NCBI GenBank assembly: GCA_963719285.1
Contig: CAVRBO010000004.1
Span: forward strand, 324,898 to 388,897
Direction of reading: 5' to 3'
DNA from: an uncultured Chloroflexia bacterium
Lineage (GTDB): Bacteria > Chloroflexota > Limnocylindria > Limnocylindrales > CSP1-4
Length of the DNA stretch: 64,000 nucleotides
Of this stretch, positions 8,867-51,052 are shown piece after piece. Positions within the stretch are counted from its first letter, which is position 1. Each line of letters begins with the position of its first letter. The notes under the pieces were generated by a model. It was not told the origin of the DNA, searched no databases, and was given only the letters and a program-made list of their open reading frames with translations. The translations under genes were made by a program, and so were the position numbers.

Positions 8867-8868
8867 CC

Positions 8869-9414
8869 GTGAGCCCCACCGCCGACCCGCCGCCCGCCGA
8901 CAGGGCCGCACCCACGCTCCATCTCAGCCGCTGGACGATCTCATCGGGCAGCAACACCCGCAGCCGCGGGGCGGTCGTCCTGGTCGCCGGCGATCACGCC
9001 TGGGACGCCGTCGCCGAGGGCAACGGGCCGGTCGACGCGCTCTACCGGGCGGTCGACTCGGCACTCTCGGGCGTCCTCGCCGGGCACCCGCGGCTGGTCG
9101 CCTACGACATCCACGCCGTGTCCGAGGGCCCGGAGTCGGAAGGCGTCGTGACCGTCACGATCGAGCCGCCCGCCGGCGCGATGGGGCCACGCGCGAGCGG
9201 CCGCTACGGGGGCAAGGCCACGAGCACGAACATCATCGCCGCGTCGATCGAGGCCTACCTCGAGGCGGTCAACGCGCTGCTCGCCGAGGAGCACTGGTCG
9301 GGCGCGACCGAGGAGGCCGGCAATCGCCGGCGGGCCAAGGGCGCCACCCAACGGCGAGCGGAGATGGACGAGGACGAGGGCCACCACGACACGACCGCCT
9401 GGTTCGAGCGCTGA
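8869..9414 (+). CDS. stand-alone LeuA allosteric/dimerisation (LeuA_dimer-like) domain protein with acidic His-rich tail
   Basis: GDHAWDAVAEGNGPVDALYRAVD...STNIIAASIEAYLEAVNALL matches the C-terminal regulatory domain of LeuA/CimA. There is no catalytic TIM-barrel. GTG start 3 nt after the cimA stop. Confidence 0.6.
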   Translation: MSPTADPPPADRAAPTLHLSRWTISSGSNTRSRGAVVLVAGDHAWDAVAEGNGPVDALYRAVDSALSGVLAGHPRLVAYDIHAVSEGPESEGVVTVTIEPPAGAMGPRASGRYGGKATSTNIIAASIEAYLEAVNALLAEEHWSGATEEAGNRRRAKGATQRRAEMDEDEGHHDTTAWFER

Positions 9415-9421
9415 CTCGGGG

Positions 9422-22211: not shown

Positions 22212-23573
22212 TTACAGGCGATGCACCCGAGTGCAGTCGGAGATCCTGAGGACCGATCCCGATGACAGCGGCTGGTGGTTGCCTCCCACCGTCAGGCCAT
22301 CGACGTGCGCGAACCGGAGGATCGGCCCGGGTCCCTCCACCGTGGAGGTGTTGTTCGTGAACACGATGCTCCTGCGGCGGGCGATCGTGATGTTCGTCCG
22401 CAGAGTCCCGCCGGTGATCCGGTTGCCGCTCACGGTGACGTTGCTGACGCGCGATCCAGGGGCTCCGTTCGCGGTGAGGAACGCGTTCGTCCAGGTCCCC
22501 GCGGTGTTGGACAGGAACTTGATCGAGACGGCACCCTGGCTCGCGTTGTCGGGCTTGATCGCGAACACGTTGTGGCCGTTCGTCCGGAAGTCGACCCGCT
22601 GCACGGTCACCATCCGCCCGGCGGTGACGGACACGCCGTTACGCCCCGCGGACAGGCAATCCGAGTCGTGGAAGGTGACGTCGGACGCCCACGACCTGAC
22701 GGTGAGGCAGTCGCCCCACACGCCGCTCACGGTCAGATGATGGATGTCGATGTGGCTGCCGCCGGCGACCAGGATGCCCGCGGCACCATCTCGTCCCGCC
22801 TGGAAGACGCCGGGCGACGGGTCGTCGCCGATGAGCCTGAAGTTCTCGATCGTGATCCCGGTGTCGCCCCCGCCGGACGAGGCGAGCCAGAACAGCGACC
22901 CGGCTTCGGTGGCCGGTCCATGGGACCGCAGCGTGGCGCCATTCCCGTTGAGGGTCAGGCCGTGCCGCCGGACGAGCCTGATCGCGCCGTCCAGGCGATA
23001 GACCCCCTGGGCCCGGAATACGATGGTCGAGCCATCCTTGACCCTGCCGATGAACGCGTTGAGGGCCGCGCTGGCGTCGCGCGAGCCGGTTGAGTCGATC
23101 GCCGCCGGGACGGAGATCCCGGCCGGCGCGGAGGGTGGCTCCGGCGTGGGCCGGGCGGACGGCTTCGGCGCCGGCCGCGTCGCCGGGATGGGCGGCGGCT
23201 CGAGGGTCACGGTCAGCCTGGCCGGCCCGGGTTTCGGTGTCGACAGCGGCGTGGGTGCGGGGCTCGATCCGAGGCCACCGTCCCAACCGGGGCTCCCGGG
23301 GAACCAGGCATCGGCGGGCCGGTCCGATGGGTCGCCGAGCGCCGGCCCGTCAGCCGGCCCGACCGGACCACCGCCCCAGGGATCGGCTTCCTGGTCCGCC
23401 AGTCGCGCCGCGATGGAAGCCCAGGCCAGGGTGAACATGAGGGCGGCGACCAGCACCAGGCCGATGGCTTGGGCCACTCGCTGCGGGAACGGTGCCGCGA
23501 GCCCAAGAGGTGGATCGTCGTCCGGCGATGGCGTGCCCTGTGGCGCCGTGAGGCGCAGGTCGACGAGACGCAC
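22212..23573 (-). CDS. membrane-anchored right-handed parallel beta-helix (pectin-lyase-fold) protein, putative polysaccharide-active enzyme
   Basis: N-terminal TM anchor, Pro-rich linker, then repetitive beta-helix coils (NGNGATL..., ITIENFRLIGDD..., HIDIHHLTVSGVWGDCLTV..., SDCLSAGRNGVSV..., VSNVTVSGNRITGG). Confidence 0.65.
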   Translation of the reverse strand: MRLVDLRLTAPQGTPSPDDDPPLGLAAPFPQRVAQAIGLVLVAALMFTLAWASIAARLADQEADPWGGGPVGPADGPALGDPSDRPADAWFPGSPGWDGGLGSSPAPTPLSTPKPGPARLTVTLEPPPIPATRPAPKPSARPTPEPPSAPAGISVPAAIDSTGSRDASAALNAFIGRVKDGSTIVFRAQGVYRLDGAIRLVRRHGLTLNGNGATLRSHGPATEAGSLFWLASSGGGDTGITIENFRLIGDDPSPGVFQAGRDGAAGILVAGGSHIDIHHLTVSGVWGDCLTVRSWASDVTFHDSDCLSAGRNGVSVTAGRMVTVQRVDFRTNGHNVFAIKPDNASQGAVSIKFLSNTAGTWTNAFLTANGAPGSRVSNVTVSGNRITGGTLRTNITIARRRSIVFTNNTSTVEGPGPILRFAHVDGLTVGGNHQPLSSGSVLRISDCTRVHRL

Positions 23574-37734: not shown

Positions 37735-39171
37735 TCAGGACCCGAACAGCTCCCGGAGGAGGGTCAGGTAGGTATCCTTCGCGGTCGGCGTCTCGAGGCT
37801 GCTGTTGTGCCAAAGGAGCGACAGATCGCCGCCGTGGCGACGGGTCCGGCGGGCCATGTCGGCGACGGTCGCCAGGCGGTCGGGGAGCGCCGTGGACATC
37901 CGCTGGAGGAGCGTGACGTCCATGACGTGGAGCGGCCGGACCCGCAGCGCGAGCGGCGCCCCGGCCACGATGTCCCACGCCGGGAAGCTGCGCGCGGTCC
38001 CGGCCCGATACCCCACGGCGTCCGCGAAGCCGAGCGATTCGTCCTCAGTGAGGCCGGCCTCGGCCTGCAGGCGCCAGGTGTCGCCGGCCCGGAACCGCAG
38101 GAAGTGCTGGCGGATGGCGCGGCGCAGGACGCCCGGCGGGAGGTCGGCGCCGGCCCGCTCCAGGAGTGCCCACTCGGCCCGGAGACGCTCCACGTCGTCG
38201 AAGCTGTTGTAGCTCCCGTGGAGTCCGATGTGGTGACCGCGCCGGCCGATCTCGGCGATCAGCCGCCGGGCCCACGGCCGGTCGATCCGGTATCGCGATC
38301 CGTCGGGCACCTCGGTCTCGCGGGTGAGGAAGAAGAACGTGCTCTTGACGCCCCTTGCCTCGCTCGCGGTCATCAGGAAATCGAAGACGGTGTACGGGTC
38401 GAGCGGCCCGACGCCGCTCGGCGTCGGCAGGAACGAGGCGGCCCGTCGTAACGCGAGGCGCGGGTCGCGCCGGTGGATCGCATCCCCGGCGACGACCCGC
38501 AGGGCGTGGGTGCCACGCCAGTGCGCCCGCGATGACGGGTGATCGACGTCGTGGCTCACGATCGCCCGTCCCGGACCGCCAGCCTCGAGCGCTAGGCCCG
38601 ACCAGGCGCGCTCGATGAGGCCCCGGAAGGCGGTCAGGTACATGTCCAGGACCGGCCATTCAAGCCAGCCGGTCCGTCCGAGGACCGACGCGCCTGCCGG
38701 CGACCGGTCGCGGTCGTCCCGTGCGGCGCCGTCGACCGCCTCCTCGTACCGGCTGAGCAGGAAGAAGACGCTCGCGACGAGGTCGAGCCGGAACTCGAAC
38801 CGGTCGCCGTCCACGGCCACGAGGCCGTCGCCCGCCGGCGGGACGGCGAACAGGAGCGGCAGCATGCCGTCGAAGCCCGCCCAGGCCGGCGCGTCGATCG
38901 ACGCCAGCGCGGCGCCCGGGAGGCTGTCCGGCGAGAGCCACGCGGTGGCCGGGCCCAGCAGCGTCTCGGGCAGCACGATCACGGGCCCCCTGTCGCGACC
39001 GGCGAGCCGGATCCGGGTCTCAGCCAGGGCCGGGTCGATGTGGACGGTGTGGCCGACGCCGAGCCACTCCCCGAACAGGACGCCCAGGGCGTACGCCCGC
39101 TCCGGCCCGCGACCGGCGGGCGTCTCGACGAGGAACTCCGCCGGGCGCGCGGAGGTGGGCGCGGTGGCCAT
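37735..39171 (-). CDS. polysaccharide deacetylase-like (CE4/DUF2334-like) protein
   Basis: ...IVSHDVDHPSS... (D-x-D-H), ...IGLHGSY... (H-x-x-H-like). Assignment is tentative. Confidence 0.5.
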   Translation of the reverse strand: MATAPTSARPAEFLVETPAGRGPERAYALGVLFGEWLGVGHTVHIDPALAETRIRLAGRDRGPVIVLPETLLGPATAWLSPDSLPGAALASIDAPAWAGFDGMLPLLFAVPPAGDGLVAVDGDRFEFRLDLVASVFFLLSRYEEAVDGAARDDRDRSPAGASVLGRTGWLEWPVLDMYLTAFRGLIERAWSGLALEAGGPGRAIVSHDVDHPSSRAHWRGTHALRVVAGDAIHRRDPRLALRRAASFLPTPSGVGPLDPYTVFDFLMTASEARGVKSTFFFLTRETEVPDGSRYRIDRPWARRLIAEIGRRGHHIGLHGSYNSFDDVERLRAEWALLERAGADLPPGVLRRAIRQHFLRFRAGDTWRLQAEAGLTEDESLGFADAVGYRAGTARSFPAWDIVAGAPLALRVRPLHVMDVTLLQRMSTALPDRLATVADMARRTRRHGGDLSLLWHNSSLETPTAKDTYLTLLRELFGS

Positions 39172-39175
39172 CCCG

Positions 39176-40306
39176 TCAGCCCCGCTCGGTCCGGGCTCCC
39201 TGGACGGAGGCGTAGATCTCCTCCCAGCGGTCGGCGACCTTCTCGAGATCGAACCCAGCCCGGACGTTCGCCTGGAGCGCCTTGCCGATCGCCGCTCGCT
39301 CCTCGGGCGTCTTGTCCAGCATCGCCGTCATCGCCGCGGCGATCGAGTCCACCGTCGGCTCGCACAGGATCGCGCCGAGGTCGGCCCGCGCGATGTCGCG
39401 GTTGCCGCCGACGTCCGTGGATACGATCGGGAGCGCCTGGGCGGCCGCCTCGAGCAGGACCATCGGCAGGCCCTCCCAGTGCGAGGCCATCACGAACGCG
39501 TCGGAGCTCGCGAGGAGTGCCGCGACGTCGTGCCGTTCACCGAGCTGGTAGACGACATCGCCGAGGCCCCGGTCCGCCACGACCTGCGCGACGTGGGTCT
39601 CCTCGACCCCGTAACCCACGATCGCGAGACGGATCTCCGGGTGCGTCCGGCGAACCACGTCGAACGCCTCGACGAGCATCGCGTGGCCCTTCTCCGGCAC
39701 GAGCCGGCCGACACAGATCCACACGAATCCGTCGGGACCGCCGAGCTCCCGCCGGGTCGCCGCTCGGGTCTCGGCGGTCACGTCCTCGTCGGCGAGGTCG
39801 ATCCCGTTGGGGACCGTGATGATCCGCCCCCGCCCGACCGCCTTGATCCGCTCGTAGCGCTCGGAGATGACGCTCGAGACGGCCGTCGTCTGGCTCGACG
39901 CCCGATCCGTGAGGCGGTAGGCGATCTCGCGCCAGTGCGCCCCTTCGTTGACGTTGTGGGCGGTCCCGACGACCGGCACCGACCAATCGAACACCCGCCC
40001 CGCCCGGGCCAGCAGGTTGGCGTGGACCATGTGGCTGTGGATGACGTCCGGGCGCCACTTGCGCACGAACCGGACGTACCTCATGAACCCTCGCGGCGTG
40101 GGCCGGGCGCGTTGCATGTCGAGGCTCACGACCTCGGCGCCGGCCGCCAGCAGCTCCTCGACGTGGGCCCACGGCTCGGTCATCGACACGACCGCGACCG
40201 CCCAGCCGCGGCGCCGGAAGCGTACGGTGAGGTCGACGATCTGCCGCTCCGCTCCGCCCCTGCCGAGCGACGTGATGAGCAGGAGCAGTCGGCGCTCCCT
40301 AGCCAT
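39176..40306 (-). CDS. glycosyltransferase family 4
   Basis: LLLLITSLGRGGAERQIVDL... and ...ASHWEGLPMVLLEAAAQALPIVSTDVGGN... GT4 motifs. Confidence 0.8.
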   Translation of the reverse strand: MARERRLLLLITSLGRGGAERQIVDLTVRFRRRGWAVAVVSMTEPWAHVEELLAAGAEVVSLDMQRARPTPRGFMRYVRFVRKWRPDVIHSHMVHANLLARAGRVFDWSVPVVGTAHNVNEGAHWREIAYRLTDRASSQTTAVSSVISERYERIKAVGRGRIITVPNGIDLADEDVTAETRAATRRELGGPDGFVWICVGRLVPEKGHAMLVEAFDVVRRTHPEIRLAIVGYGVEETHVAQVVADRGLGDVVYQLGERHDVAALLASSDAFVMASHWEGLPMVLLEAAAQALPIVSTDVGGNRDIARADLGAILCEPTVDSIAAAMTAMLDKTPEERAAIGKALQANVRAGFDLEKVADRWEEIYASVQGARTERG

Positions 40307-41657
40307 GGGCGACGGCCTGTCGTCCGGCGAGCGCCTGCTCCGGAACGGCGGCGCGCCCCCGGATCAGGGGGAACCGGGCGACCGCGAAGGCCGAGCACAG
40401 CCAGAATTCCACGTTCGAGGCCAAGCTGCCGCTGAACAACGTGAACAGCCCGGTCGCGACGACGAGCGCCATGAGGATCGGCGAGCCGGCCGCCCCGCGG
40501 ACCGCGAAGGCCACCCACGGCACCACGAGGAGGATCCCGAGGACGCCCAGCTCGGCCGCGATCTCGAACACGAGGTTGTGGGGATACGTGTCGAAACCGG
40601 TCGCCGCGAAGCCGCCGAGCCCGACACCCAGGAACGGGTGGCTCCAGAACAGGCGCCCGGATTCGCCGATGTACGACGCCCTCGACGTGACGTCCGGCTC
40701 GGCCAGGAAGCTCGTCAGGATCGACGAGACCCGGTCGAAGAACCCGAGGCCGGCCACGATGCCGAGGGCCGTGGTGATCCCGATCCCGGCCCAGGCGAGC
40801 TGGATCCGCCGGTCGTGCCGATCGAACGTCCGGAGCTTCTCCGCGCCGCCTGCGCACATCCCGAGCACGAACCCGATCGCCGGACCACGCGACACGGGGA
40901 GGATGCCGGCGTACACGACGAGCGGGACGAGGAGCAGCTTCCAGCCGCGCGGGATCGGGGCGAACAGGATGACGATCGCGCCGATGAACAGGGCGCGTGA
41001 CTCCCAGATGGGATTCGCCCCGAACAGCGAGATCCGGCCCGGGTACGTGGGCGAGTCGGTCCCGAACGCCAGCATCGCCATGGCGGTCAGGACCCCGGCG
41101 ACGACGACCGGCCGCCAGTCGATGGACGACGTGGCCGGGGCGAGCACGAGGATGAACGCGGCGGGGATGAGACCCGCGAGGATCCAGACGCTGAGCTTGT
41201 CCGAGCCGAAGGCCGCGTCCGGCGACCAAGACAGCGACGCGGCCGCGAACGCGAGCAGCAGGAGCAGCGGCGCGAGCAGGGCGAGCCGCGGCCTGGCCTC
41301 GCGATGGAGCGCGAACGCCGCCACCGTGAACGGCAGGAACCCGCCCACGATCGCGGCGACGACCGACACGCCGATCTTGAACGAGAGGAGCAGGGTCCCG
41401 ATGGGCCCCACGAGGAAGATCGCTGCGACGAGCACCCACGAGGCGTTGAGGATCAATCCGAACCGGCTCATCGCGAGGGCGACCACGATGACGATCGCGA
41501 TCCCGAGCAGCATGAGCTGGAGCGAGAAGGACGGCAGCGCGGCGACGAGCACCCCGATCCCCCCGGTCGTGAGCAGGAGGGCGAGCGCCAGGCGGCTCAG
41601 CCCGATCGAGGGTCGCCCGAACGACGGCCGGCGGACCGTCGCCCTAACCGTGGACAA
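40299..41657 (-). CDS. O-antigen ligase / Wzy_C family polytopic membrane protein (polymerase, ligase or O-oligosaccharyltransferase)
   Basis: About 10-12 TM segments with a large extracytoplasmic loop. The Wzy_C-like region ...WSHPFLGVGLGGFAATG...YPHNLVFEIAAELGVLG is typical of WaaL/Wzy/PglL-type proteins. Confidence 0.7.
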   Translation of the reverse strand: MSTVRATVRRPSFGRPSIGLSRLALALLLTTGGIGVLVAALPSFSLQLMLLGIAIVIVVALAMSRFGLILNASWVLVAAIFLVGPIGTLLLSFKIGVSVVAAIVGGFLPFTVAAFALHREARPRLALLAPLLLLLAFAAASLSWSPDAAFGSDKLSVWILAGLIPAAFILVLAPATSSIDWRPVVVAGVLTAMAMLAFGTDSPTYPGRISLFGANPIWESRALFIGAIVILFAPIPRGWKLLLVPLVVYAGILPVSRGPAIGFVLGMCAGGAEKLRTFDRHDRRIQLAWAGIGITTALGIVAGLGFFDRVSSILTSFLAEPDVTSRASYIGESGRLFWSHPFLGVGLGGFAATGFDTYPHNLVFEIAAELGVLGILLVVPWVAFAVRGAAGSPILMALVVATGLFTLFSGSLASNVEFWLCSAFAVARFPLIRGRAAVPEQALAGRQAVAHG

Positions 41658-42720
41658 GCTCGTCGAACAGCGCCAGGCGCTGCGCCTCCTTGACCGCGAC
41701 GTCGATGTGGGCGACGTCCGGACGCGGGACCCGGACGCCGCGCGAGCGGGTCACGAAGTCGTCGATGGCGTCCAGGGCGTCGATCACGTTGGTCTCCGTG
41801 TTGTCGATCCGCAGGGTGTATCGGCCGAGCGCGTCGGCATCGGGATCCGCGTACCCGTACAGGATGGGCAATCCTACCGCTAGATACTCGCGCACCTTGA
41901 GCGGGCACGCCTCGGTCATCGACTTGCGATGGAGGGCCAGGGTGCCGACTCCGATATCGGCCGTCGCGAGGACCTCGACCACCTGGGCCCGATCCAGCGG
42001 ACCGTGCCATGCGACGTTGGCCGGCGCCGGACCGCCGATCAGCGCCGTGTCCGCGTCGAGGCCCATGATGTCGAACCGCCAGGCGGGCCGCCGCGCGGCC
42101 AGCTCCACGAGCTTGTCGACGCCGTGCCATGGCTGGTCCGCCGTCCCGACGAAGGCGAGCCTCGGCGCCGGTCCCTCGACGGCGGGAGGGCTCGGGTAGG
42201 CCGACAGCTCGATCCCGTTCGTGACCACGCGATGGACGGCCCTGAACCCGGCGAAGCTCGGCTTCGCGCTCAGCTCCGAGGTGACGAAGACGAACCCCCG
42301 GGCCCGTCCGAGGAGCAGCCCTCGGGTGAGCCGGTTGTAGGTCGAACGGACGCGTGAGCCGAGCGCCGACTCGGCCTCGTCGTCAGTGTTCAGTTCGACG
42401 ACCAGCGGCACGCGCCGCGGGAACCGCAGCATCGGCGGGTAGAAGAGGTCCCAGCGCAGGTACACGAGGCTCGGGCGGAAGGCCCGCACGCTCTCGACCA
42501 GCCTGGCCATGGCCTTGATCCGCGAGAACGGGCTGTCGTAGCGGCGGACGACGACTTTCGTGCCGAGCCGCTCGGACCACGGGTCGTCGCGATCGCGCGT
42601 CGCGATGTACAGCCGGACCTCGTGGCCGGCGGCGGTCCACCGGTCGACCTGGCCGGCGACCTTGTGGAGCACGCCGGACCGGCGGGCGGCGTTGACGTGG
42701 GCGAAGTAGGCGATGCGCAT
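41644..42720 (-). CDS. glycosyltransferase (GT-B, GT4-like)
   Basis: C-terminal ...EACPLKVREYLAVGLPILYGY... motif. First gene of a run of overlapping minus-strand genes (GT, Wzy_C, GT4, CE4-like). Confidence 0.7.
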   Translation of the reverse strand: MRIAYFAHVNAARRSGVLHKVAGQVDRWTAAGHEVRLYIATRDRDDPWSERLGTKVVVRRYDSPFSRIKAMARLVESVRAFRPSLVYLRWDLFYPPMLRFPRRVPLVVELNTDDEAESALGSRVRSTYNRLTRGLLLGRARGFVFVTSELSAKPSFAGFRAVHRVVTNGIELSAYPSPPAVEGPAPRLAFVGTADQPWHGVDKLVELAARRPAWRFDIMGLDADTALIGGPAPANVAWHGPLDRAQVVEVLATADIGVGTLALHRKSMTEACPLKVREYLAVGLPILYGYADPDADALGRYTLRIDNTETNVIDALDAIDDFVTRSRGVRVPRPDVAHIDVAVKEAQRLALFDELVHG

Positions 42721-42810: not shown

Positions 42811-44065
42811 TCACCGGAAGTAGAACTGGAGGTCGGTCGGACTCTTGTCGAACAGGTCGGTCCAGCGCGAGCCGTCCGGCGAGCCCTGGGCGGTGCCCTC
42901 GCGGAAGGCGAACGACTCCAGCCCCACGTCCGTGCCCTCGCGGATCGGCGCCGCCGTGTAGGTGCTCGATGGCGCGGTCGTGAGCACCAGGTCGTAGGTC
43001 GTTCCGGCCGCCAGGGTCATGGTTGGGAACGTCACCGACGCCCAGACCGAGCCACCGTTGTCGCCACCGGCGGCCGAGGCCGGGATTTCGGTGGCGGCGA
43101 CCTCGCCCGACGCGAGGACCGTGTCGCCCTGGCGGATCGAGATGACGAGAGGGTCGGAGCCGGAGGAGCGCCGGACCCGGACCGCGGCCGAGCTCACGAT
43201 CCGGCCGTTGCCCACGACCGTGAAGTGCTCGCGCACGGACGCGGCGCCCGAGACGGTCCCGAAGTACTCGGTCATGTTCTGGACGTAGGCCACACCGTCG
43301 TGGCCGCCGTCGGCATAGGTGATGTCCATGTCGGCGGTGAAGTTGTCCTGGACCTGCCAATGGCCCGGGGTCGCATACAGGACCGCGTAGTCCGCGTCCG
43401 CCAGCCCGGGCTGGCGGGGCACCAGGGTGGGGCCGTAGACGAACAGTTCGTTCACGCTGATGTAGTTCGCCTCGGGATCGGCGTCGGTGTTCTCGAAGAC
43501 CACGTAGTAGAGCTTGCCCTTGGTCACAGGGACCGGCGCGGGCAGTTGCAGGACGTCGAACTTCGCCCACGCCTGGGAGGGGTTGCCCGGCGTGTAGTCC
43601 ACCGAGCCGAGGACGGTTCCGGACGGCACGCCGTCGGCGTCGGCCTGGATCGTGATCCTGATCGTCCCGCCCGTGCCGCCGGAGTAGACCGAGCCGCCCC
43701 GCTGGGCGAACCGGACGCTCAGGATCATCGAGCTCGTGCTCGCCCGGAAGCGGTGGGCGAGCCGCGCCCCGTCCGTCCAGCCGACCTGAAGGTTCGCCTT
43801 GGTGTCCACGTTCAGGGCGGTGCCGTAGATGCCCTTGACGGCTGGTCCGGGCGTCGCGGTGGGCGTGGGTGCCGGCAGGCTCAGGTGAGGCCGGCTCGCG
43901 ACGTAGTACACCCCGATCCCGCCGCCGACGACGACGACGGTCGCGAGGGCGGCCAGCGCCAGCCAGAGGCGCAGTCTGCGGGCCCTGCCGGGCGGTCCAA
44001 TGGGTGATGCTTCCAGGATATGTCCTGCCAGTCCGAGGTCGGCCCGGCGCGCGGATGCGCGTCAC
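42811..44065 (-). CDS. paralog A of the secreted-protein array (shortest member: RR signal anchor + PT linker + conserved ~340 aa C-terminal domain). N-terminus is ambiguous, with a possible 1-nt frameshift near 43985-44000
   Basis: Conserved domain GIYGTALNVDTKANLQVGWTD...DLQFYFR from the GTG at 43911. The same frame continues upstream as ...RARRLRLWLALAALATVVVVGGG (signal anchor) but with no ATG/GTG/TTG. An ATG at 44065 lies in the +1 frame (MTRIRAPGRPRTGRTYPGSITHWTAR...). So a frameshift or a non-canonical start is needed. Confidence 0.5.
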
Positions 44066-44173
44066 GGCCGGCCGCTGGTTCCGCGTCGCGCAGGCTGCGC
44101 GACGGACGGCTCGGTCAAGAGGATAGCGTGGCGACGCCGCGAACCCGCGGACGCCCGTCGCGGTCCGGGCATG

Positions 44174-44205
44174 GAACGAGGCCGGGCGTCGGCCCGGCCT
44201 CGTTC
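44174..44205 (-). terminator. perfect 14-bp stem hairpin (gaacgaggccgggc-gtcg-gcccggcctcgttc) 20 nt downstream of paralog B
   Basis: Seen in sequence. No U-tract, so it may also be a protein-binding palindrome. Confidence 0.35.
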
Positions 44206-44225
44206 GTTCCGCGCTGCGCGGGCGG

Positions 44226-46226
44226 CTACTTCAGGTAGAACTGCAGGTCGAGCTGCGCCCACTGGTAGAGGGCCGCCCAGGACGAACCGTTGGTCGTCCG
44301 CTGGGCCTGTCCATCGCCGAAGACGAACGACCGGAAGCCGACGTCCGTGCCCTCCCGGATGGGAGTCGCCGTGTACGTCGTCCCACTCGCCGTCGAGAGT
44401 CGGATGCTGTAGGTGGAACCCTTGGCCAGGGTATGGGTCTTGCCGAAGGATGCCCTGACCCAGACCTGGCCGCCGTTGTCGCCGCCGGGGGAGGTGGCCG
44501 GCACCGAGCTCGCCGGGATGCTCACCGAGTCGATGAGCGCCCCGGAACTGGACTCGAGCCGGATGATGAGCGGGCTCGAACCGCTCGACCGGCGCATCCG
44601 GACCGCGACGCTCGAGATCTTGCGACTGCTGCCGCTGACCTTGAACCGCTCCCGGACCATGTGGGTCGAGCCGGAGATGGTGCCGTAGTAGTCGATCTGG
44701 GCGGCCACGTAGCCGTCGCCATCGTGGACCCCGTTGGAGTACCCGACGTCCATGTCGGCGGTGTACTTGCCCATGACCGCCCACGACCCGCCTCCGTTGG
44801 CGAGCACGGCGTAGTTCGTGTCGGTCCAGCGAGGCTGGCGCGGCGAGAGCACGCTGCCGTAGACGAACGTCTCGTTGACCGAGATGAAGTTCGACCGGGG
44901 CGACGAGCTGGTGTTCTGGAACACGATGTAGTAGAGGTGCCCGGCCGTGAGCCTGGCCGGCTTCGAGAACGTGACCCGGTCGAAGGTGTTGATCCCGGAA
45001 CTGCCCGGGGTGTACGACGCCGACGTCAGGATCGTGCCTGACGGCCGCCCGTGGCCGTCGTCCGGCCTGACGCTGATGCGCATCGTGCCGCCGTTGCCGC
45101 CCGAGTAGCCGGCTCCACGTCGCTGTGCGAAGCGGACGCTCACGACATTGGACGTGGTGCTCGCCCGGAACCGGTGCGCGACCATGTTGTTGGCCGAGCT
45201 CGTGTCCGTGCCACCGACCTGGATCTGCGCCTTCGTGTCGGCGTTGATCCCGGTCCCGTAGAGGCCGGACGTACCGCCACTGGCGGCGACCGGCGGCGCG
45301 GCTGGCGGCGGTGGCGTGGCCACCGGGATCCCGAGCCGGACCTCGGCGGTCGACGTGCTCGTCGGATGGCCCGCGATGGAACGATAGAAACCGGAGCTGG
45401 ACGACTTCGTATCGGTCCGGCCGACCCAGCTGTGACCGCGGGTCGAGCTGAACGTCTTCACGTGGTCGTAGTTGCCCGAGGCGTTCCGCCACATCCGGTC
45501 GACTGACATGTTCTTCGTGAACACGCCCCGGATGTACGTGAGCGGGTAGTGGAACTGGTCCGCGATCACGGCTCCCGCGCCCGCGTAGAGGAACCCCGCG
45601 GCGTAGTTCGAGATCCGCTTCCGGGCGACCGTGAGTGACGGAGCCGACTGGCCCGGCTCACTCCCGCCCGAGGCGTACGCGGCCCGGGACAGGACGACCA
45701 CGGCGTGGGCGGACAGGTTGACTGTCCGGATGTACTTCTCGCCGTAGAACTTGATGGCCGTGCTGCCATGATTCTCGCGTGGATTGAGCCCGAGACCGTC
45801 CTCGCTCACCTGGTTGAGCTTGGAGCTGTAAGGGGACGGGAATCCGCGACCGCGGCCGATGTACACGACCAGCGATGCGCCTTCCATGGCGGCCTTGACC
45901 TTGGTCCAAGTGGCCCGCGGCGAGAAGACCGTGACGACATTCGATGTGTAGCGCCGGGCCTCGGTCGCGGCGGCGCGACCCCAGCTCAGGTTGGTCGAGG
46001 TCTGGGTACCGGCGGGGCCGACGATGATCGCGACTTTCGGCGCGACGGCGGCGGCGGCGGGGGCCGCGACCGCGAATTGGAGGCCCATCAGCGCGAGCGT
46101 GATGATCGCGCCGGCGATGAGCGGCCGGACGGGACGACGGGACGCCCTCTGGGCGCCGTTGGCGGTGGACCGCAATAGATTCTCCTCTCCACCAGAACAC
46201 CGCACGGCATGCGGCGACGGAGTCAT
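44226..46226 (-). CDS. paralog B of the secreted-protein array (RR signal anchor, unique ~330 aa N-terminal module, PPPP linker, conserved C-terminal domain)
   Basis: Start taken at MTPSPHAVRC (46226; CAT verified on the plus strand), giving ...RASRRPVRPLIAGAIITLALMGL signal anchor. C-terminus ...TSGLYGTGINADTKAQIQVGGTD...QLDLQFYLK is homologous to A, C and D. Confidence 0.7.
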   Translation of the reverse strand: MTPSPHAVRCSGGEENLLRSTANGAQRASRRPVRPLIAGAIITLALMGLQFAVAAPAAAAVAPKVAIIVGPAGTQTSTNLSWGRAAATEARRYTSNVVTVFSPRATWTKVKAAMEGASLVVYIGRGRGFPSPYSSKLNQVSEDGLGLNPRENHGSTAIKFYGEKYIRTVNLSAHAVVVLSRAAYASGGSEPGQSAPSLTVARKRISNYAAGFLYAGAGAVIADQFHYPLTYIRGVFTKNMSVDRMWRNASGNYDHVKTFSSTRGHSWVGRTDTKSSSSGFYRSIAGHPTSTSTAEVRLGIPVATPPPPAAPPVAASGGTSGLYGTGINADTKAQIQVGGTDTSSANNMVAHRFRASTTSNVVSVRFAQRRGAGYSGGNGGTMRISVRPDDGHGRPSGTILTSASYTPGSSGINTFDRVTFSKPARLTAGHLYYIVFQNTSSSPRSNFISVNETFVYGSVLSPRQPRWTDTNYAVLANGGGSWAVMGKYTADMDVGYSNGVHDGDGYVAAQIDYYGTISGSTHMVRERFKVSGSSRKISSVAVRMRRSSGSSPLIIRLESSSGALIDSVSIPASSVPATSPGGDNGGQVWVRASFGKTHTLAKGSTYSIRLSTASGTTYTATPIREGTDVGFRSFVFGDGQAQRTTNGSSWAALYQWAQLDLQFYLK

Positions 46227-46495
46227 GGGCCGCGCCAGCGACAAGATGGACGCAGGTAGGCGTAAGGCGGTGAGGTGCGATCGCACCCGACCACCTGCGG
46301 CGGCGCGGCATGTCTGCGGACGGACCTGCACACGGGGACGCCAGGCCGACCGTTGGACGCGATCCGGACTGAGCTGGCCACGTCGGTGAGCGACTGGCCC
46401 GTTCCCGGGATGTCCCGGCTCCCGGAGGATCACGGTGCCCTAGAGCAACGTCGGGATTATGGCGCATCCCGCCGGATCGCGTCGCGCCCCGGCGA

Positions 46496-48511
46496 TCAGC
46501 GGAAGTAGAACTGGATATCCACCGGGCTGTACTGGTAGAGGTCCGCCCAGGTCGTGCCATTGCCGGAGCTCTGGCCGGAGCCGTCCCGGAAGGCCGTGGA
46601 CATGAGGCCCACGTCGGTGCCTTCGCGGATCGGCGCGGCCGTGTACTCCGTCCCGGACGGCGTGGTGAGGCGGAGGTTGTACGACGTTCCGTTGACCAGC
46701 GTGTGCGCCGAGCCGAAGGTCACTCCGACCCACACCGAACCGCCGTTGTCGCCGCCCGCCGCGCTCGCCGGGACGGAGCTGGCGGCGACATTGGCCGAAT
46801 CGATGAGCGTGCCGGAGCCTGTCTCCAGGCGGATCGTGAGCGGGCTCGAGCCGCTCGTCCGGCGGACCCGGACGAAGGCCTTGCTGATCGTGCGGTCGCC
46901 GCCCGAGACCGTGAAGTGCTCGCGGACGGACGCCGAGCCCGAGATCGTCCCGTAGAGTTCGACGATGTTCGCGATGTAGGCCATCCCGTCGTGGACGCCG
47001 TTCGAGTAGGCGAGGTCCATGTCCGCGGTGTACCTGCCCTCGACCGACCAGCTCGACGGGGCGGCGGTCAGGACGGCGTAGTCGGCGTCGGCGAACGCCG
47101 GCTGGCGGGGGGTCAGGGTGGAGCCGTAGACGAAGAGCTCATTGACGCTGAAGTAGTTCCCGACGGGATTCGCGTCGATGTTCTCGAACACGATGTAGTA
47201 GCGCGAGCCCTTCGTGAGCGTGGCCGGCGACGGGAAGGTCACCGCGTCGTACGTGGTCCAGGCGCCGGACGGGTTGCCCGGCGAGTACGTGGCCGCGGCG
47301 AGCACGGTGCCGGACGGAACGCCGCTGGCGTCGGTCTGGACGGTGATCCGGTATGTCCCGCCGTTACCTCCGGAATAGATCGGCCCGCCGCGTTGCTGGA
47401 AGCGCACGCTCTTGAGCGCGGAGGTCGTGCTCGCGACGAACCGGTGGGCGACCTTCGCCCGATCCGTCCAGCCGACCTGCAGGTTGGCCTTGGTGTCGAA
47501 GTTGAACGCGGCCCCGTAGATCCCGCCGGACCCGGGCTGGGGTGTGGTCGTGGGATCCGGGGTCTGGGTCGCGCCCGGCGTCGCCGTCGGCTTCGCGGTG
47601 GGATCCGGCGTGGCGGTCGGGTCCGTGGTCGCGGTCGGATCGGGCGTCCCGGTCGGATCGGGGCTTGCCGTCGCGGTGGGATCCGGCGTCGCGGTCGGGT
47701 CCGCGCCGCTGGGCATGGTCGTGAACGTGAAGTCGGTCGAGACCGACAATCGGCCACCGGCGTCCTGCGAACGGACCCGGTAGTGATACTGCGTGCCGGG
47801 CGCGAGGCCCGAGACCTTCTGAGCGTGGGCGGTGTACTGGAGCGACTTCTCCGGCGCGGTCTCCTGGCCGTAGGCCGTCGTCGTGCCGTAGTCGACCTGC
47901 CCGGTGGCGGGTTCGTCCAGTCGCCAGGTGACGAGTGCCGCCGTGTCACTGACGCTCGTCGCCTTCACCAGGCTGATCGATGGAGGCGTCGTCCTTCCCG
48001 GGTTCTTGCGCGTGACCCGGACATTCACGGTCGTGACCGCGGGTGTGTGCGGGAGCGCCGAACGGGCGAGCGTGCCGGCGACGACCCTGACGGCCGAGGT
48101 GCGATCGACCCGCGAGAAGGTCGCGCTGTGGACCCCGCTCGTGGCCGTGCCGGGGATCCGCAGATGGCCGTGGAACGTGCCCTTGACGCTCGGCCAGACG
48201 AGCCGGATCGCCCTCGGGACCGAATCCCAGTGGACCTGGTAGACCGCATGGGCCTTGAAGCCGCGCCCGTCGATGATGACCGTCTGGCCGGGGGCACCCG
48301 ACCCGGTCACGGAGACCGTGGGCCCGCTCGCGGCGTTGTCGATGTCATCGGGCGCCGGTGATGCGCTCCAGGCGAGGGCCGGGACGAAGAGCAGGAGGCC
48401 GATCGCGACGGTGAGGATGGGCAGTCGGCGCTTCGAGCTCGATCGTCTGGCCGGGGTCGACGGCGCGACGGCCGGGTCGGTGACCCAGGCGGTTCCATTC
48501 CAGAACGTCAT
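46496..48511 (-). CDS. paralog C of the secreted-protein array (N-term MTFWNGTAWVTD tail, RR signal anchor, Ig/Fn3-like modules, Pro/Thr/Asp linker, conserved C-terminal domain)
   Basis: Fn3-like segment ...LVTWRLDEPATGQVDYGTTTAYGQ...SGLAPGTQYHYRVRSQDAGG..., linker TATPDPTATASPDPTGTPDPTATTDPTATPDPT, then GIYGAAFNFDTKANLQVGWTD...VDIQFYFR. Confidence 0.75.
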   Translation of the reverse strand: MTFWNGTAWVTDPAVAPSTPARRSSSKRRLPILTVAIGLLLFVPALAWSASPAPDDIDNAASGPTVSVTGSGAPGQTVIIDGRGFKAHAVYQVHWDSVPRAIRLVWPSVKGTFHGHLRIPGTATSGVHSATFSRVDRTSAVRVVAGTLARSALPHTPAVTTVNVRVTRKNPGRTTPPSISLVKATSVSDTAALVTWRLDEPATGQVDYGTTTAYGQETAPEKSLQYTAHAQKVSGLAPGTQYHYRVRSQDAGGRLSVSTDFTFTTMPSGADPTATPDPTATASPDPTGTPDPTATTDPTATPDPTAKPTATPGATQTPDPTTTPQPGSGGIYGAAFNFDTKANLQVGWTDRAKVAHRFVASTTSALKSVRFQQRGGPIYSGGNGGTYRITVQTDASGVPSGTVLAAATYSPGNPSGAWTTYDAVTFPSPATLTKGSRYYIVFENIDANPVGNYFSVNELFVYGSTLTPRQPAFADADYAVLTAAPSSWSVEGRYTADMDLAYSNGVHDGMAYIANIVELYGTISGSASVREHFTVSGGDRTISKAFVRVRRTSGSSPLTIRLETGSGTLIDSANVAASSVPASAAGGDNGGSVWVGVTFGSAHTLVNGTSYNLRLTTPSGTEYTAAPIREGTDVGLMSTAFRDGSGQSSGNGTTWADLYQYSPVDIQFYFR
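47530..47705. repeat. degenerate tandem repeats encoding the (D/T)PTAT(P/A) linker in paralog C
   Basis: Repeated ggtgggatccggcg / gtcgcggtcgg(g/a)tc units seen in sequence. Confidence 0.4.
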
Positions 48512-48517
48512 GCGATC

Positions 48518-48605
48518 GTGTCTCCGTTCGGCAGCCCGGCTGACTCAGGGAGTTCCGTGGCTTTGCGACCCCGTCTCGCGGCGGGTGTGCTATTTCGTGG
48601 GACAT
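48518..48605 (-). ncRNA. candidate c-di-GMP-I (GEMM) riboswitch in the 5' leader of paralog C
   Basis: Minus-strand RNA: CACGAAAUAGCACACCCGCC-GCGA-GACGGGGUCGCAAAGCCACGGAACUCCCUGAGUCAGCCGGGCUGCCGAACGG, followed by GAGACACGAUCGC-AUG. Matches remembered GEMM-I hallmarks: GCA(A/c)ACC before a GNRA-capped P1 hairpin, then GGG(A/u)CGCAAAGCCACGG, then AGCCGGG..CCGAA. A near-identical copy lies upstream of paralog D. Confidence 0.45.
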
Positions 48606-48783
48606 CGGATCGAGGACCATCCGGTCCGACAGGCCAACTCGCAGGATGGCCAACCACCATCCGCTCGGGTATGGGGTGATGGTCCCGGCGGCCGTGGGAC
48701 GAAGCGGGGCCCGGACCGACCCTGAGCGCACCGGTGTGGCACGCACGGCACAGCCCGCCTCATCCGGGCGCGCCGGGAATCGG

Positions 48784-48811
48784 ACCGCGGGACCCGTCGA
48801 TGGGTCCCGCG
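48784..48811 (-). terminator. hairpin ccgcgggaccc-gtcgat-gggtcccgcgg ~45 nt downstream of the paralog D stop
   Basis: 11-bp perfect stem seen in sequence, followed on the minus strand by the U-containing stretch UCCGAUUCC. Likely separates the D and C transcripts. Confidence 0.35.
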
Positions 48812-48853
48812 GAAGGAAGGTTTCGATCGCCGCCGGGCAGCGGCGTCCGGTGA

Positions 48854-50959
48854 TCAGCGGAAGTAGAACTGGATGTCGACCGGGCTGTAGGCGTACAGGT
48901 CCGCCCAGCTCGTCCCGTTGCTCGAGCTCTGGCCCGAGCCGTCGCGGAAGGCGGGGGAGAGGAGACCCACGTCGGTCCCTTCGCGGATCGGCGCGGAGGT
49001 GTACGTGGTGCCCGACGCCGTCGCCAGGCGCAGGTTGTAGGCCGTCCCGTTGGCGAGAGTGTGCGGGCTGCTGAAGGTCACCGTGACCCAGACCGACCCG
49101 CCGTTGTCGCCGCCCGGCGCGCTTGCGGCGATGGAGCTCGCCGGGACGTCGACCGCCTCGATGAGCGTGCCCGCGCCGGTCTCGAGCCGGATGGTCAGCG
49201 GGCTGGAGCCGCTCGTCCGGCGCACCCGGACCGATGCCTTGGTGACGGTGCGGTTTTCGCCGCTGACCGTGAAATGCTCACGGACCGACGCGCTGCCCGA
49301 GACCGTCCCGTACAGCTCGATGATGTTGGCGATGTAGGCCATCCCGTCATGGGTCCCATCCGCGTAGGTGAGATCCATGTCGGCGGTGTACTTGCTCTGG
49401 ACGGACCAGGTCGAGGGAGCCGCATAGAGGACCGCGTAGTCCGCGTCGGCGAAGGCCGGCTGACGGGGGGTCACGGCGCTGTAGGTGTACAGCTCGTTGA
49501 CGCTGAAGTAGTTGGCGGCCGAGTTCGCGTCGACGTTTTCGAACACGATGTTGTAGCGGATGCCCTTGGTCAGAGTGGCGGGGCTGCTGAACGTGACCAG
49601 GTCGTAGTGGGTCCACACGCCCGAGTTGCCCGGCGTGTAGCTGGCCGTCGCGAGGATCGTCCCGGAAGGCACGCCGTTCGAGTCGGTCTGGACGGTGATC
49701 CTGAGGGTGCCGCCGGTGCCGCCGGAGTAGATGGGCCCGCCGCGCTGCTGGAAGCGGATGCTCTTGAGGGCCGAGGTCGTCGTGGCCACGAACCGGTGGG
49801 CGACCTTCGCGTGATCGGTCCAACCGACCTGCAGGTTGGCCTTGGTATCGAAGTTGAACGCGGCTCCGTACGTCCCGGTCTGGCCGGGAGCCGGGGTCGC
49901 GGTCGGGGCGACGGTCGGAGTCGCCGTCGGGGCGACGGTCGGAGTCGCGGTCGGGGCGACGGTCGGAGTCGCCGTCGGGGCGACGGTCGGTGTCGCCGTC
50001 GGGGCGACGGTCGGTGTCGCCGTCGGCGTCGCGGTCGGGGCGCTCGTCGGTGTCGCCGTCGGGGTCGCGGTCGGAGCGACGGTCGGAGCGACCGTCGGGG
50101 TCGGGCTCGCCGCTCCGCCGATCGTCTTGAACGTGTCGTCGGACGAGACCGACAGGCGGCCGGCGGCATCCTGCGATCGGACCCGGAAGTGATAGACGGT
50201 CCCGGCGAGGAGGCCGCTCACCTGCTGGACGTGAGCGGAGTAGCGGAAGGATGTCTCGGCGGTCGTCAGGCGACCGTAGGCGGTCGTGGTGCCGAATTCG
50301 ACCTGGCCGGTGGCCGGCTCATCCAGGCTCCAGGACACGATCGCGCCGCTCGAACCGATGCTCGTCGCCGTCACGGCGCTGATGCGCGGTCCCGTCGCCG
50401 TCGTCGGGGCCGGGGTCGGGGTCGGCGTGGCGGTCCCGTTGGCGACCACGAACGTCGCGCTCGTGGTGGCGCGGCCGGCGGCAGTGACCGCGGTGACCGA
50501 GATCGTGTGCGAACCATTCGCCACCGTGGAGGTGTTCCAGGCGTTCGCGGTCTCGTTGTCGGCGGTCCCACGGAGGTCCCATGGAGCCGCCGCTTCGACG
50601 CGCATCGGCGTCGTGGTCATCGCGACGTCATCGAGCCAGAAGGTGACGCTGCTGGCGACGGTCTTGGTGGCCAGGAAGACGTAGCGATTGCCGGCGAGCG
50701 TGGCACCGTTGAGGGCGAACGGCTTGCTGCGGGTCCGGGCGGCAGAGGCGTCCAGCATGAAGCCGGTATTGGGCGTGGCGGCCGTGGACGAACGGTGGGC
50801 GGCTGCGACGGGCAGCTGGGGGAGGGCGACGGCGGCGGCGACGGCGAGGGTCACCACGGCCAGGAAGGGCACGCGGGCGAGGCGATGGAGACGCCGGGCG
50901 GGGACATGAGCGGGAGTGGTCGTTTCAGTGACCCAGGAGGTCCCATTCCAGGACGACAT
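48854..50959 (-). CDS. paralog D of the secreted-protein array (N-term MSSWNGTSWVTE tail, RR signal anchor, beta-sandwich module, Fn3-like module, long PT linker, conserved C-terminal domain)
   Basis: ...SWSLDEPATGQVEFGTTTAYGR...SGLLAGTVYHFRVRSQDAAG..., (ATPTVAPT)n linker, then GTYGAAFNFDTKANLQVGWTD...VDIQFYFR. RBS GGAG 10 nt upstream. Confidence 0.75.
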   Translation of the reverse strand: MSSWNGTSWVTETTTPAHVPARRLHRLARVPFLAVVTLAVAAAVALPQLPVAAAHRSSTAATPNTGFMLDASAARTRSKPFALNGATLAGNRYVFLATKTVASSVTFWLDDVAMTTTPMRVEAAAPWDLRGTADNETANAWNTSTVANGSHTISVTAVTAAGRATTSATFVVANGTATPTPTPAPTTATGPRISAVTATSIGSSGAIVSWSLDEPATGQVEFGTTTAYGRLTTAETSFRYSAHVQQVSGLLAGTVYHFRVRSQDAAGRLSVSSDDTFKTIGGAASPTPTVAPTVAPTATPTATPTSAPTATPTATPTVAPTATPTVAPTATPTVAPTATPTVAPTATPTVAPTATPAPGQTGTYGAAFNFDTKANLQVGWTDHAKVAHRFVATTTSALKSIRFQQRGGPIYSGGTGGTLRITVQTDSNGVPSGTILATASYTPGNSGVWTHYDLVTFSSPATLTKGIRYNIVFENVDANSAANYFSVNELYTYSAVTPRQPAFADADYAVLYAAPSTWSVQSKYTADMDLTYADGTHDGMAYIANIIELYGTVSGSASVREHFTVSGENRTVTKASVRVRRTSGSSPLTIRLETGAGTLIEAVDVPASSIAASAPGGDNGGSVWVTVTFSSPHTLANGTAYNLRLATASGTTYTSAPIREGTDVGLLSPAFRDGSGQSSSNGTSWADLYAYSPVDIQFYFR
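49893..50112. repeat. 24-bp tandem repeat (~9 copies, cgtcggggcgacggtcgg(a/t)gtcgc) encoding (TPTVAPTA)n in paralog D
   Basis: Near-perfect tandem copies seen in sequence. They are in-frame and length-variable in principle. Confidence 0.65.
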
Positions 50960-50967
50960 GCGATCTT

Positions 50968-51052
50968 GGCTCCATTCGATGACCCGGCTGACTCAGTGAG
51001 TCCCGTGGCTTTGCGGCCCCGTCTCGCGGCGGGTGTGCCATTTCGTGGTCCC
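50968..51052 (-). ncRNA. second candidate c-di-GMP-I (GEMM) riboswitch, in the 5' leader of paralog D
   Basis: Minus-strand RNA: CACGAAAUGGCACACCCGCC-GCGA-GACGGGGCCGCAAAGCCACGGGACUCACUGAGUCAGCCGGGUCAUCGAAUGG, followed by AGCCAAGAUCGC-AUG. The aptamer core is ~90% identical to the paralog C copy. Differences are concentrated in the 3' segment adjoining the RBS. Confidence 0.45.

Follow-up and report, generated by a model that had tools for sequence, protein, structure and literature searches.

A riboswitch-associated tandem array of predicted stalked surface proteins in a Chloroflexota polysaccharide locus

Four paralogous genes and their products

A 64,000-nucleotide stretch of DNA from an uncultured Chloroflexia bacterium (contig CAVRBO010000004.1; hereafter "the window") carries four consecutive minus-strand open reading frames (ORFs), which we call A, B, C, and D. 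All four have a coding-type GC content at third codon positions (GC3 = 0.88–0.92). Their predicted products end in a common unit of ~340 amino acids, hereafter the head, and genes C and D are preceded by aptamers of a riboswitch class for cyclic di-GMP (c-di-GMP). A sequence-only reading of this DNA had proposed that the four genes are paralogs that share a C-terminal domain, and a MAFFT alignment bears this out. Head-only identities are 82% for C and D, 66% for A and C, 65% for A and D, 64% for B and C, 61% for B and D, and 56% for A and B. Furthermore, a family hidden Markov model (HMM) matches the four window copies with E-values of 1e-154 to 1e-173, and chance is therefore excluded as the source of their likeness. 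The anchor motifs listed in the earlier reading are also present, with slight deviations in B (GLYG, QIQVGGTD, NFISVNET, and PRQPRWTDTNYAVL). All four proteins form singleton clusters without names, and the window corresponds to ENA record ERZ25039539, contig_6027.

Genes B (44226–46226, 666 amino acids, or 649 according to gene callers), C (46496–48511, 671 amino acids), and D (48854–50959, 701 amino acids), all on the minus strand, correspond exactly to the coordinates first proposed for them. This is not true of gene A, whose proposed span of 42811–44065 is not divisible by three and begins at a GTG (44065) that lies in a different frame. In its own frame, A is bounded by a stop at 44062–44064, and the first canonical start is a GTG at 43911 that would yield a protein of 366 amino acids (42811–43911). 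This GTG falls inside the transmembrane segment (RRLRLWLALAALATVVVVGGGIGVYYV), and the RRLRLWL transmembrane segment is located upstream of the first in-frame ATG, GTG, or TTG. A CTG at 44014–44016 is embedded in the context GCAGGAC-N4-CTG-GAA, which is kept in both the window and a syntenic related locus (L002), and the ortholog of A in another related locus (L003) carries ATG-GAG aligned with this CTG-GAA. Because this CTG context is kept in L002 and aligns with an ATG in L003, gene A most probably spans 42811–44016 on the minus strand and encodes 401 amino acids from a noncanonical CTG start. Gene callers shortened A to 366 amino acids, beginning within the transmembrane helix. We also considered that A might be a frameshifted pseudogene of the frame opened by the GTG at 44065, and rejected this possibility given the in-frame CTG context kept in L002 and the ATG at this position in L003. 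Protein A matches the family HMM with an E-value of 1.4e-169; its orthologs in L002 and L003 are 80% and 72% identical, respectively, and a copy from locus L004 groups with them in a tree.

As had been suggested, the N-terminal parts of the proteins are modular and swapped among copies. Each protein carries exactly one strongly hydrophobic N-terminal segment (Kyte–Doolittle 19-residue mean >2.1) preceded by an Arg-rich sequence. Export by the twin-arginine translocation (Tat) pathway or by a signal anchor had been proposed based on an Arg-Arg-containing hydrophobic anchor. Arg pairs are present in all four proteins (RARRLRLW in A, ASRRPVRP in B, SKRRLPIL in C, and PARRLHRL in D), but none matches the full S/T-R-R-x-F-L-K motif, and Tat export is not well supported. 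A signal anchor for A, or a Sec-type signal peptide with an AxA-like site for B through D, appears equally or more plausible than Tat export.

Protein A is the simplest of the set: its cytoplasmic tail is short, one transmembrane signal-anchor spans residues ~14–41, and a short Pro/Thr linker leads to the head (42814–43836). In B, an N-terminal hydrophobic signal is followed by a clan-CD peptidase-like domain (~45333–46034), a linker, and the head (44229–45260). Proteins C and D both begin with a DUF2510-like N-terminal motif and a hydrophobic signal. These are followed in C by an Ig-like region, an Fn3-like module (47717–47980), a Pro/Thr repeat linker (47588–47703), and the head (46499–47530), and in D by a Big_13-like Ig region (50450–50647), an Fn3-like module (50123–50380), an 8-amino-acid Pro/Thr tandem-repeat linker (49892–50100), and the head (48857–49885).

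The Fn3-like modules and Pro/Thr linkers anticipated for C and D are supported by Pfam matches and repeat analysis. The module in C exceeds the gathering score of Pur_ac_phosph_N (39.3 versus 30 bits) and falls just below that of fn3 (24.5 versus 25 bits), and the module in D is below both (23.9 and 17.4 bits, respectively). Because the linkers are tandem repeats at the DNA level, with an 18-nucleotide period repeated 6 times in C and a 24-nucleotide period repeated 8.7 times in D, stalk length is likely variable through repeat expansion and contraction. The first ~11 codons of C (48479–48511) and D (50927–50959) encode a cytoplasmic motif, M(T/S)xW(N/D)GxxW(V/I), that is kept in orthologs from L002, L004, and L012 and shows a weak resemblance to the latter half of the DUF2510 model (E 0.006–0.13). 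This motif is conserved at the protein level, as indicated by variation at codon third positions.

The N-terminal module of B (~240 amino acids) had been described as unique, a view that must now be abandoned. We found 58 homologs, many of which are fused to SH3_3, and 8 of 35 match Peptidase_C25 (PF01364), although weakly (best E 3.3e-4). An AlphaFold2 model (pLDDT 91.9) has an alpha/beta fold with beta-alpha-beta-alpha-beta topology, wherein two motifs directly follow the strands at residues 67–71 and 123–128. The family consensus GHGNG...HLCYASG is present in 31 of the 35 members. Because it is replaced by GRGRG...RAAYASG in B and in its closest relatives (P0121 and P0122), leaving the His/Cys dyad absent, we predict that the module adopts a distant Peptidase_C25-like, clan-CD pseudo-peptidase fold. 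The active-looking relatives of this module, often fused to SH3_3, themselves constitute an uncharacterised family.

Cyclic-di-GMP aptamers and the polysaccharide locus

The two riboswitch candidates noted in the sequence-only reading are genuine matches to the c-di-GMP-I (GEMM-I) class. The aptamers in the leaders of C (48527–48601, minus strand) and D (50975–51049, minus strand) match the full RF01051 model of Rfam (positions 1–87) with 53.4 and 52.6 bits, respectively, well above its gathering score of 35 bits. Membership in the c-di-GMP-I-GGC variant class (RF03167) was rejected: the scores of 52.2 and 51.3 bits are below the gathering score of 59 bits, and the window RNAs read CGCAAAG compared to CGCGAAG in the variant consensus.

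Similar aptamers precede the first long copies of the family in related loci, giving nine aptamers from seven loci: two each in the window and L002 (6581–6655 and 8951–9025), and one each in L004 (5094–5167), L012 (9913–9986), L009 (2222–2302), L007, and L008. An aptamer is thus present in seven of the eight array loci that adjoin polysaccharide genes, which agrees with the earlier expectation that the head domain co-occurs with c-di-GMP riboswitches and exopolysaccharide (EPS) loci. When the nine aptamers were compared over 19 predicted base pairs, three pairs of P3 were found to carry double compensatory changes, and P2 exhibits U-A/U-G variation. Their CGCAAAGCC junction shows no variation at all.

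To evaluate ligand contacts, we relied on G20 and the conserved A-rich junction including A47, in the numbering of the Vc2 RNA. The canonical ligand contacts are G20 and C92, of which G20 reads the G-alpha moiety of the ligand, and natural riboswitches for cyclic GMP-AMP (c-GAMP) have an A at this position (PMC6140456). Moreover, the G20A variant of Vc2 binds both c-di-GMP (53 nM) and c-GAMP (120 nM) (PMC6140456). The equivalent of G20 is the unpaired nucleotide located 5′ of an invariant GCAC, and it is a G in the D aptamer and an A in the C aptamer. The same split is seen in L002, and elsewhere this nucleotide is A (L004 and L012), G (L007 and L008), or C (L009). It is therefore possible that the C and D aptamers prefer different ligands or bind the same ligand with unequal affinity.

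In both window leaders, 15 nucleotides separate the end of the aptamer from the downstream ATG, and the aptamer is directly followed by a Shine-Dalgarno sequence, which is GGAGA in C (9 nucleotides before the ATG) and GGAG in D. This type of expression platform, wherein the Shine-Dalgarno sequence abuts the aptamer, is shared by the window, L002, L004, and L012, and a second type with a spacer of ~100 nucleotides is used in L007 through L009. Because the Shine-Dalgarno sequence abuts the aptamer, control of C and D looks translational. In several leaders, the GG of the Shine-Dalgarno sequence can pair with a CC located just 5′ of P1. Minimum free energy and partition-function folding of six leaders yielded Shine-Dalgarno partners that differ between leaders and thus did not discriminate between ON and OFF control. 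A search of the window genes for GGDEF, EAL, and HD-GYP motifs returned spurious matches only, and the ORF at 587–2659 encodes acetolactate synthase.

Two hairpins, found by eye and evaluated with RNAfold, divide the array. Downstream of the D stop codon, a perfect 11-bp, GC-rich hairpin that lacks a U tract (48785–48812, minus strand; −26.1 kcal/mol) resembles a terminator and is located between D and the riboswitch leader of C. A perfect 14-bp hairpin of the same GC-rich, U-tract-free type (44174–44205, minus strand; −33.0 kcal/mol) is placed between the B stop codon and A. These terminator-like structures suggest three separate transcription units, consisting of D, C-B, and A together with downstream genes for a family 4 glycosyltransferase (GT4) and a Wzy-like polymerase. 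A promoter scan found none, and a terminator scan gave matches at chance level only.

Pfam annotation of the neighbouring genes supports the earlier statement that the array is embedded in a glycan-biosynthesis locus, which we predict to be a complete Wzx/Wzy-type polysaccharide locus. Its genes encode, in order, a beta-helix protein, a DegT aminotransferase, a Bac_transf initiating transferase, a FemAB-like acyltransferase, an ATP-grasp enzyme, a methyltransferase, a Wzz/kinase-type co-polymerase, an AsnB-type amidotransferase, an epimerase, Wzx, DUF7033 (37735–39171), GT4 (39176–40306), Wzy (40299–41657), a second GT4 adjacent to A (41644–42720), the four array proteins, and a divergent PglF/CapD-type dehydratase. 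The four genes for which coordinates are given are on the minus strand and lie immediately downstream of A, and the GC content of the window is uniform at ~0.70.

A profile search of genome contigs with a 10-sequence alignment returned four loci. The nearest relatives reside in metagenome-assembled genomes labelled uncultured Chloroflexia or Chloroflexota, and the family HMM reveals tandem arrays in every related cellular locus. In addition to the window, arrays of two to four copies adjoin genes for Wzy, Wzx, and GT4 in L002, L003, L004, L007, L008, L009, and L012. Locus L002 has four copies and is fully syntenic with the window (D-like, C-like, B-like, A-like, GT4, Wzy). Three copies each are present in L004, L012, and L008, two intact copies plus fragments in L009 (where a copy has its stop at the very start of Wzx), and one intact copy plus fragments in each of L007 and L003. 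In L002, L004, and L012, an A-type copy is again followed by GT4 and then by a Wzy-like gene, and a GT4 gene follows the A-type copy in L003. The array is thus a constant feature of the Wzx/Wzy-dependent polysaccharide locus in this lineage of Chloroflexota.

A neighbour-joining tree indicates that the A-type copies of different genomes are orthologs of one another, as are the B-type copies, that C and D are mutually closest, and that other lineages have undergone copy expansions of their own. The heads of C and D are 82% identical to each other compared to 72–76% to their L002 counterparts, and two heads in L004 (from genes 5104–6999 and 7333–9471) are nearly identical in the tree. Because these pairs are mutually closest, recent duplication or gene conversion within arrays is suggested.

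Some array copies are split over two or three frames (L003 7578–9742; L007 1327–5889; L008 5530–8549; L009 2409–7238) and are either pseudogenes or products of long-read homopolymer frameshift errors. In L007, L008, and L009, the first copy, which is the one preceded by the riboswitch, lies within the split region.

Beta-helix proteins are found near several family members. A right-handed beta-helix protein (22212–23573) is encoded at the edge of the window EPS locus, and in L010 two Pel9A-like beta-helix proteins (3335–4534 and 7999–9603) alternate with five family copies. These proteins would be better candidates for a locus glycanase, and their arrangement may hint at a functional partnership with the heads.

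The shared head and alternative functions

The sequence-only reading could not assign the head to any known family. It remains true that the head has no characterised homolog. Members of the family are all named "hypothetical" in their sources, and our literature search on DUF4082, choice-of-anchor domains, Chloroflexi c-di-GMP riboswitches, and c-di-GMP-I-GGC found no study of the head family. However, weak matches to two reference families were obtained. Protein B exceeds the 30-bit cutoff of the NCBIfam model for choice-of-anchor R (NF041539) with 32.6 bits, A and the isolated head of C are below it (27.0 and 26.7 bits, respectively), and full-length C and D do not match. This model is matched by 42 of 58 homologs at E ≤ 0.01 (best E 1.5e-11). 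For DUF4082 (PF13313), A scores 22.9 bits (E 9e-5), below the gathering score of 28.4 bits; no match to B, C, or D was observed in the Pfam scan, and 19 of the 58 homologs match at E ≤ 0.01. The relationship to DUF4082 thus seems to be remote only. Faint Lectin_like matches were also observed in the Pfam scan of the window proteins.

Both A and B match NF041539 in two stretches, one per half of the head. When the N-terminal and C-terminal halves of the family alignment were compared with hhalign, they matched with a probability of 84% (E 7.8e-6, 122 columns). This match indicates that the head arose when a choice-of-anchor R/DUF4082-like beta-sandwich of ~150–170 amino acids was duplicated in tandem within one protein. 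Each half of the 340-amino-acid unit, a beta-sandwich of ~150 amino acids, is a weak match to the models of the two reference families, which likewise describe extracytoplasmic domains. In contrast to these families, the head invariably joins two sandwiches, and its inter-domain packing and motifs are conserved and distinctive. Of the four proteins, B alone attains the NCBIfam cutoff, and all stay below the Pfam gathering score. Both reference families are functionally uncharacterised, so membership in them does not suggest a mechanism.

Searches of the Protein Data Bank (PDB) with a single head and with a 58-sequence profile found nothing meaningful, and no Pfam model for a carbohydrate-binding module (CBM) matched the head above threshold, with one homolog matching CBM_6 at E 0.007. 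Proteins A, B, and C have no match in PHROGs, and D matches phrog_15511 (unknown function; E 4.8e-10) over its Pro/Thr linker and part of the head, possibly driven by low complexity.

The family extends far beyond the array. With a cutoff of E ≤ 1e-30, a profile search of 1.84 billion representatives yielded 781 clusters, a number that rises to 2,083 when the cutoff is relaxed to 1e-3, and head identity between phyla is 44–65%. Fusion partners include Fn3, SH3_3, PG_binding_1, CBM_5_12, LTD, FG-GAP, PA14, F5/8 type C, Big_7, PKD, and the C-terminal domain of type IX secretion system (T9SS) cargo, for which the family serves as an N-terminal head. These partners are stalk, binding, or anchor modules, and one member carries a beta-helix. 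Another member, P0055 (locus L011, 991–2082), is a twin-sandwich head of 363 amino acids that is 53% identical to the window head over its whole length and, as judged by eye, lacks an N-terminal hydrophobic anchor segment. Its gene, on a contig labelled Planctomycetota, is located in a siphovirus-like structural module upstream of genes for head closure, tail completion, the major tail protein, and the tape measure. Scans of IMG/VR with the Chloroflexota alignment and with the phage-type P0055 returned no relatives.

An AlphaFold2 model of the C head, built with a 58-sequence alignment, is all-beta (pLDDT 94.8, pTM 0.91) and consists of two jelly-roll beta-sandwiches of the kind that characterizes the CBM/lectin class. 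Foldseek searches of the PDB and the BFVD database returned phage baseplate, central-fibre, and minor-tail proteins, BcsB, and a fungal lectin, and three proteins of uncultured phages span both halves (TMq 0.69, 0.53, and 0.42). No jelly-roll enzyme families are among the leading matches in these two databases. The modelled head is closest to phage receptor-binding and baseplate domains, to the lectin-like domain of Clostridioides difficile Cwp84 (PDB 4ci7), and to CBMs. Several distinctions exist, however. Sequence identity to the Cwp84 domain and to CBM6, CBM35, and CBM15 is 7–15%, and a CBM usually accompanies a separate enzyme domain, whereas in the window proteins the paired sandwiches are themselves the principal domain. 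The solved phage proteins (phi812 DUF4815 protein, Bxb1 gp29, and Douge gp20) align to one sandwich only and are trimeric virion components that have no membrane anchor, riboswitch, or EPS context.

Given these phage connections, the heads might be receptor-binding modules of phage origin that cells have kept for phage–host conflict, perhaps as surface decoys or for superinfection exclusion, with no relation to polysaccharide. Such a role is compatible with the occurrence of a close homolog in a siphovirus-like structural module and with a fold related to phage receptor-binding proteins. We consider it very improbable, however, because the array has a conserved order beside GT4-Wzy, its A- and B-type copies are orthologs in different genomes, and no phage or mobile-element genes flank it in the window, where GC content is uniform. 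The lack of IMG/VR relatives also argues against this role, and c-di-GMP control points to a lifestyle function.

The best structural matches further include capsid and decoration proteins, namely PBCV-1 P1v1 and a cyanophage A4 capsid protein. These matches, the rigidity of the two-domain unit that is implied by its pTM, the head-proximal position of the phage copy within its structural module, and the N-terminal membrane anchor might all be explained if the proteins self-assemble through sandwich pairs into an S-layer, sheath, or capsule scaffold, with the paralogs providing alternative lattices. Riboswitch-gated expression of multiple paralogs and flexible Pro/Thr stalks would be atypical of such envelope proteins, there is no sign of oligomerisation, and N-terminal heads of T9SS cargo and fusions to PA14 or F5/8 type C are contexts of adhesins and lectins. 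A structural role therefore seems improbable.

A more serious challenge comes from the possibility that the head acts enzymatically on polysaccharides outside the cell, for instance as a novel depolymerase, lyase, or modifying enzyme. It would then trim, release, or remodel the EPS made by the locus, and phage copies would serve as virion depolymerases. EPS loci commonly carry a dedicated glycanase, as exemplified by PslG, PelA, AlgL, and BcsZ, and this general pattern favours an enzyme. Likewise, the head is constant and is fused to accessory binding modules (SH3_3, PG_binding_1, CBM_5_12, and PA14), as is usual for catalytic domains; its polar loop motifs are conserved, it is 53% identical between phage and Chloroflexota, and the copies in L010 alternate with Pel9A-like beta-helix proteins. 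Pairing between the Shine-Dalgarno sequence and the P1 region also would fit an OFF switch that permits expression at low c-di-GMP, the dispersal state.

However, among 230 diverse members, the residues conserved in at least 95% are mostly Gly, Tyr, Trp, Phe, and Pro, along with N16, N117, S128, and R203. Invariant His, Glu, and Lys residues are lacking, and thus no candidate acid/base residue is retained throughout. Divergent members such as P0116 depart from the motifs QRGG, PRQP, HDG, and REGTD. Three to five tandem stalked paralogs form a pattern that is adhesin-like rather than enzyme-like, the beta-helix protein at the edge of the window locus is already a candidate glycanase, and the fold neighbours disfavour catalysis. 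The "glycan-processing" role that had been offered for these proteins thus finds no support in the modelled fold, which resembles binding modules rather than enzymes. Overall, we regard an enzymatic head as somewhat unlikely.

Predicted role and relation to known systems

We tentatively favour the reading that the array encodes second-messenger-regulated, stalk-mounted, noncatalytic proteins that bind glycans at the cell surface or in the matrix. This preference is based on the lectin-type fold of the model, the choice-of-anchor R matches, the fusions to stalk, binding, and anchor modules, and the absence of an invariant His, Glu, or Lys. It is also based on the placement of arrays adjoining Wzy, Wzx, and GT4 genes and of aptamers before the first long copies. 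The constant unit would be a rigid head made of two homologous lectin-type jelly-roll sandwiches that arose by ancient tandem duplication. This head would be held at the cell surface by the N-terminal signal-anchor of A, or exported by the N-terminal hydrophobic signals of B through D. Membrane and head would be separated by no spacer in A, by a dead peptidase-like domain in B, and by Ig/Fn3-like modules and Pro/Thr stalks in C and D. The heads might bind the polysaccharide produced by the locus itself, or another glycan of the envelope or substrate, and thereby contribute to retention and organisation of the matrix or to adhesion. The cyclic dinucleotide level would act on translation initiation to set the amount of long-reach C and D on display, and the short, anchored A would be made together with the GT4-Wzy operon.

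Several observations fit this proposal less well. The head is usually the sole large conserved domain and is decorated with binding modules, a pattern that is also typical of catalytic domains, and its sequence conservation is high both between phyla and relative to the phage copy. The polar loops QRGGxxYSGGTGG, NYISVNE, PRQP, TADMD, HDG, and REGTD could form an active site. Finally, the predicted pairing of the Shine-Dalgarno sequence with a C-rich tract 5′ of P1 in several leaders can be viewed as an OFF switch at high c-di-GMP if ligand stabilises this pairing, which would be a poorer fit to a matrix adhesin.

A bolder proposal is that the head is a hitherto unrecognised glycan-recognition or glycan-cleaving domain common to EPS machineries and phage virions, and that C and D are wired to different cyclic dinucleotides. 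Such wiring is suggested because the D aptamer has the canonical G20 expected for c-di-GMP, the C aptamer has the A20 signature of c-GAMP or bispecific RNAs, and this split is kept in L002. If true, a single locus would answer each of two second messengers by displaying a distinct head at the surface, although we judge this combination unlikely.

Regardless of the mechanism, riboswitch-controlled surface proteins are a known theme that is extended here, and the array is not a new kind of system. Vibrio cholerae RbmC/Bap1 and GbpA are secreted, lectin-type proteins that bind EPS or surface glycans under c-di-GMP control, and gbpA carries a GEMM-I riboswitch. The folds of these proteins (beta-prism/beta-propeller and lytic polysaccharide monooxygenase, respectively) are unrelated to that of the window head. 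Closer parallels are the surface adhesins that c-di-GMP riboswitches control in Firmicutes, including the stalked Cap/CbpA of Bacillus thuringiensis, which is regulated by the Bc2 RNA (PMC4933901, PMC7423583), and CD2831 and CD3246 of C. difficile (PMC6200980, PMC6447587). In these systems, production of a large exported surface protein with an Ig/Fn3-like stalk and a ligand-binding region is governed by an aptamer in the 5′ leader, an arrangement that is predicted for the window as well. However, these Firmicutes proteins are MSCRAMM-type collagen binders anchored by LPXTG and sortase, and they are encoded by single genes that are mostly controlled by transcription termination. In contrast, the window proteins have an N-terminal anchor, a twin choice-of-anchor-R-like head, and apparently translational control, and they are encoded by tandem paralogs clustered within a Chloroflexota EPS locus.

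Chloroflexota of this type are abundant soil bacteria for which we know of no cultured or genetically tractable representatives. To our knowledge, nothing is known of how they build or regulate a matrix, and protein effectors of c-di-GMP are not known in the phylum. The locus described herein offers a concrete unit for study, in which a cyclic-dinucleotide aptamer is joined to an uncharacterised family of ~800–2,000 clusters that travels with Wzx/Wzy genes. Once the target bound or cleaved by the head is identified, a large family of "hypothetical" proteins that includes phage and T9SS-cargo members would become annotated, and choice-of-anchor R/DUF4082-like domains would gain their first function. 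Knowledge of head function would also show how c-di-GMP reaches the cell surface in Chloroflexota, and the pair of G20 and A20 aptamers within one array constitutes a natural experiment on ligand tuning.

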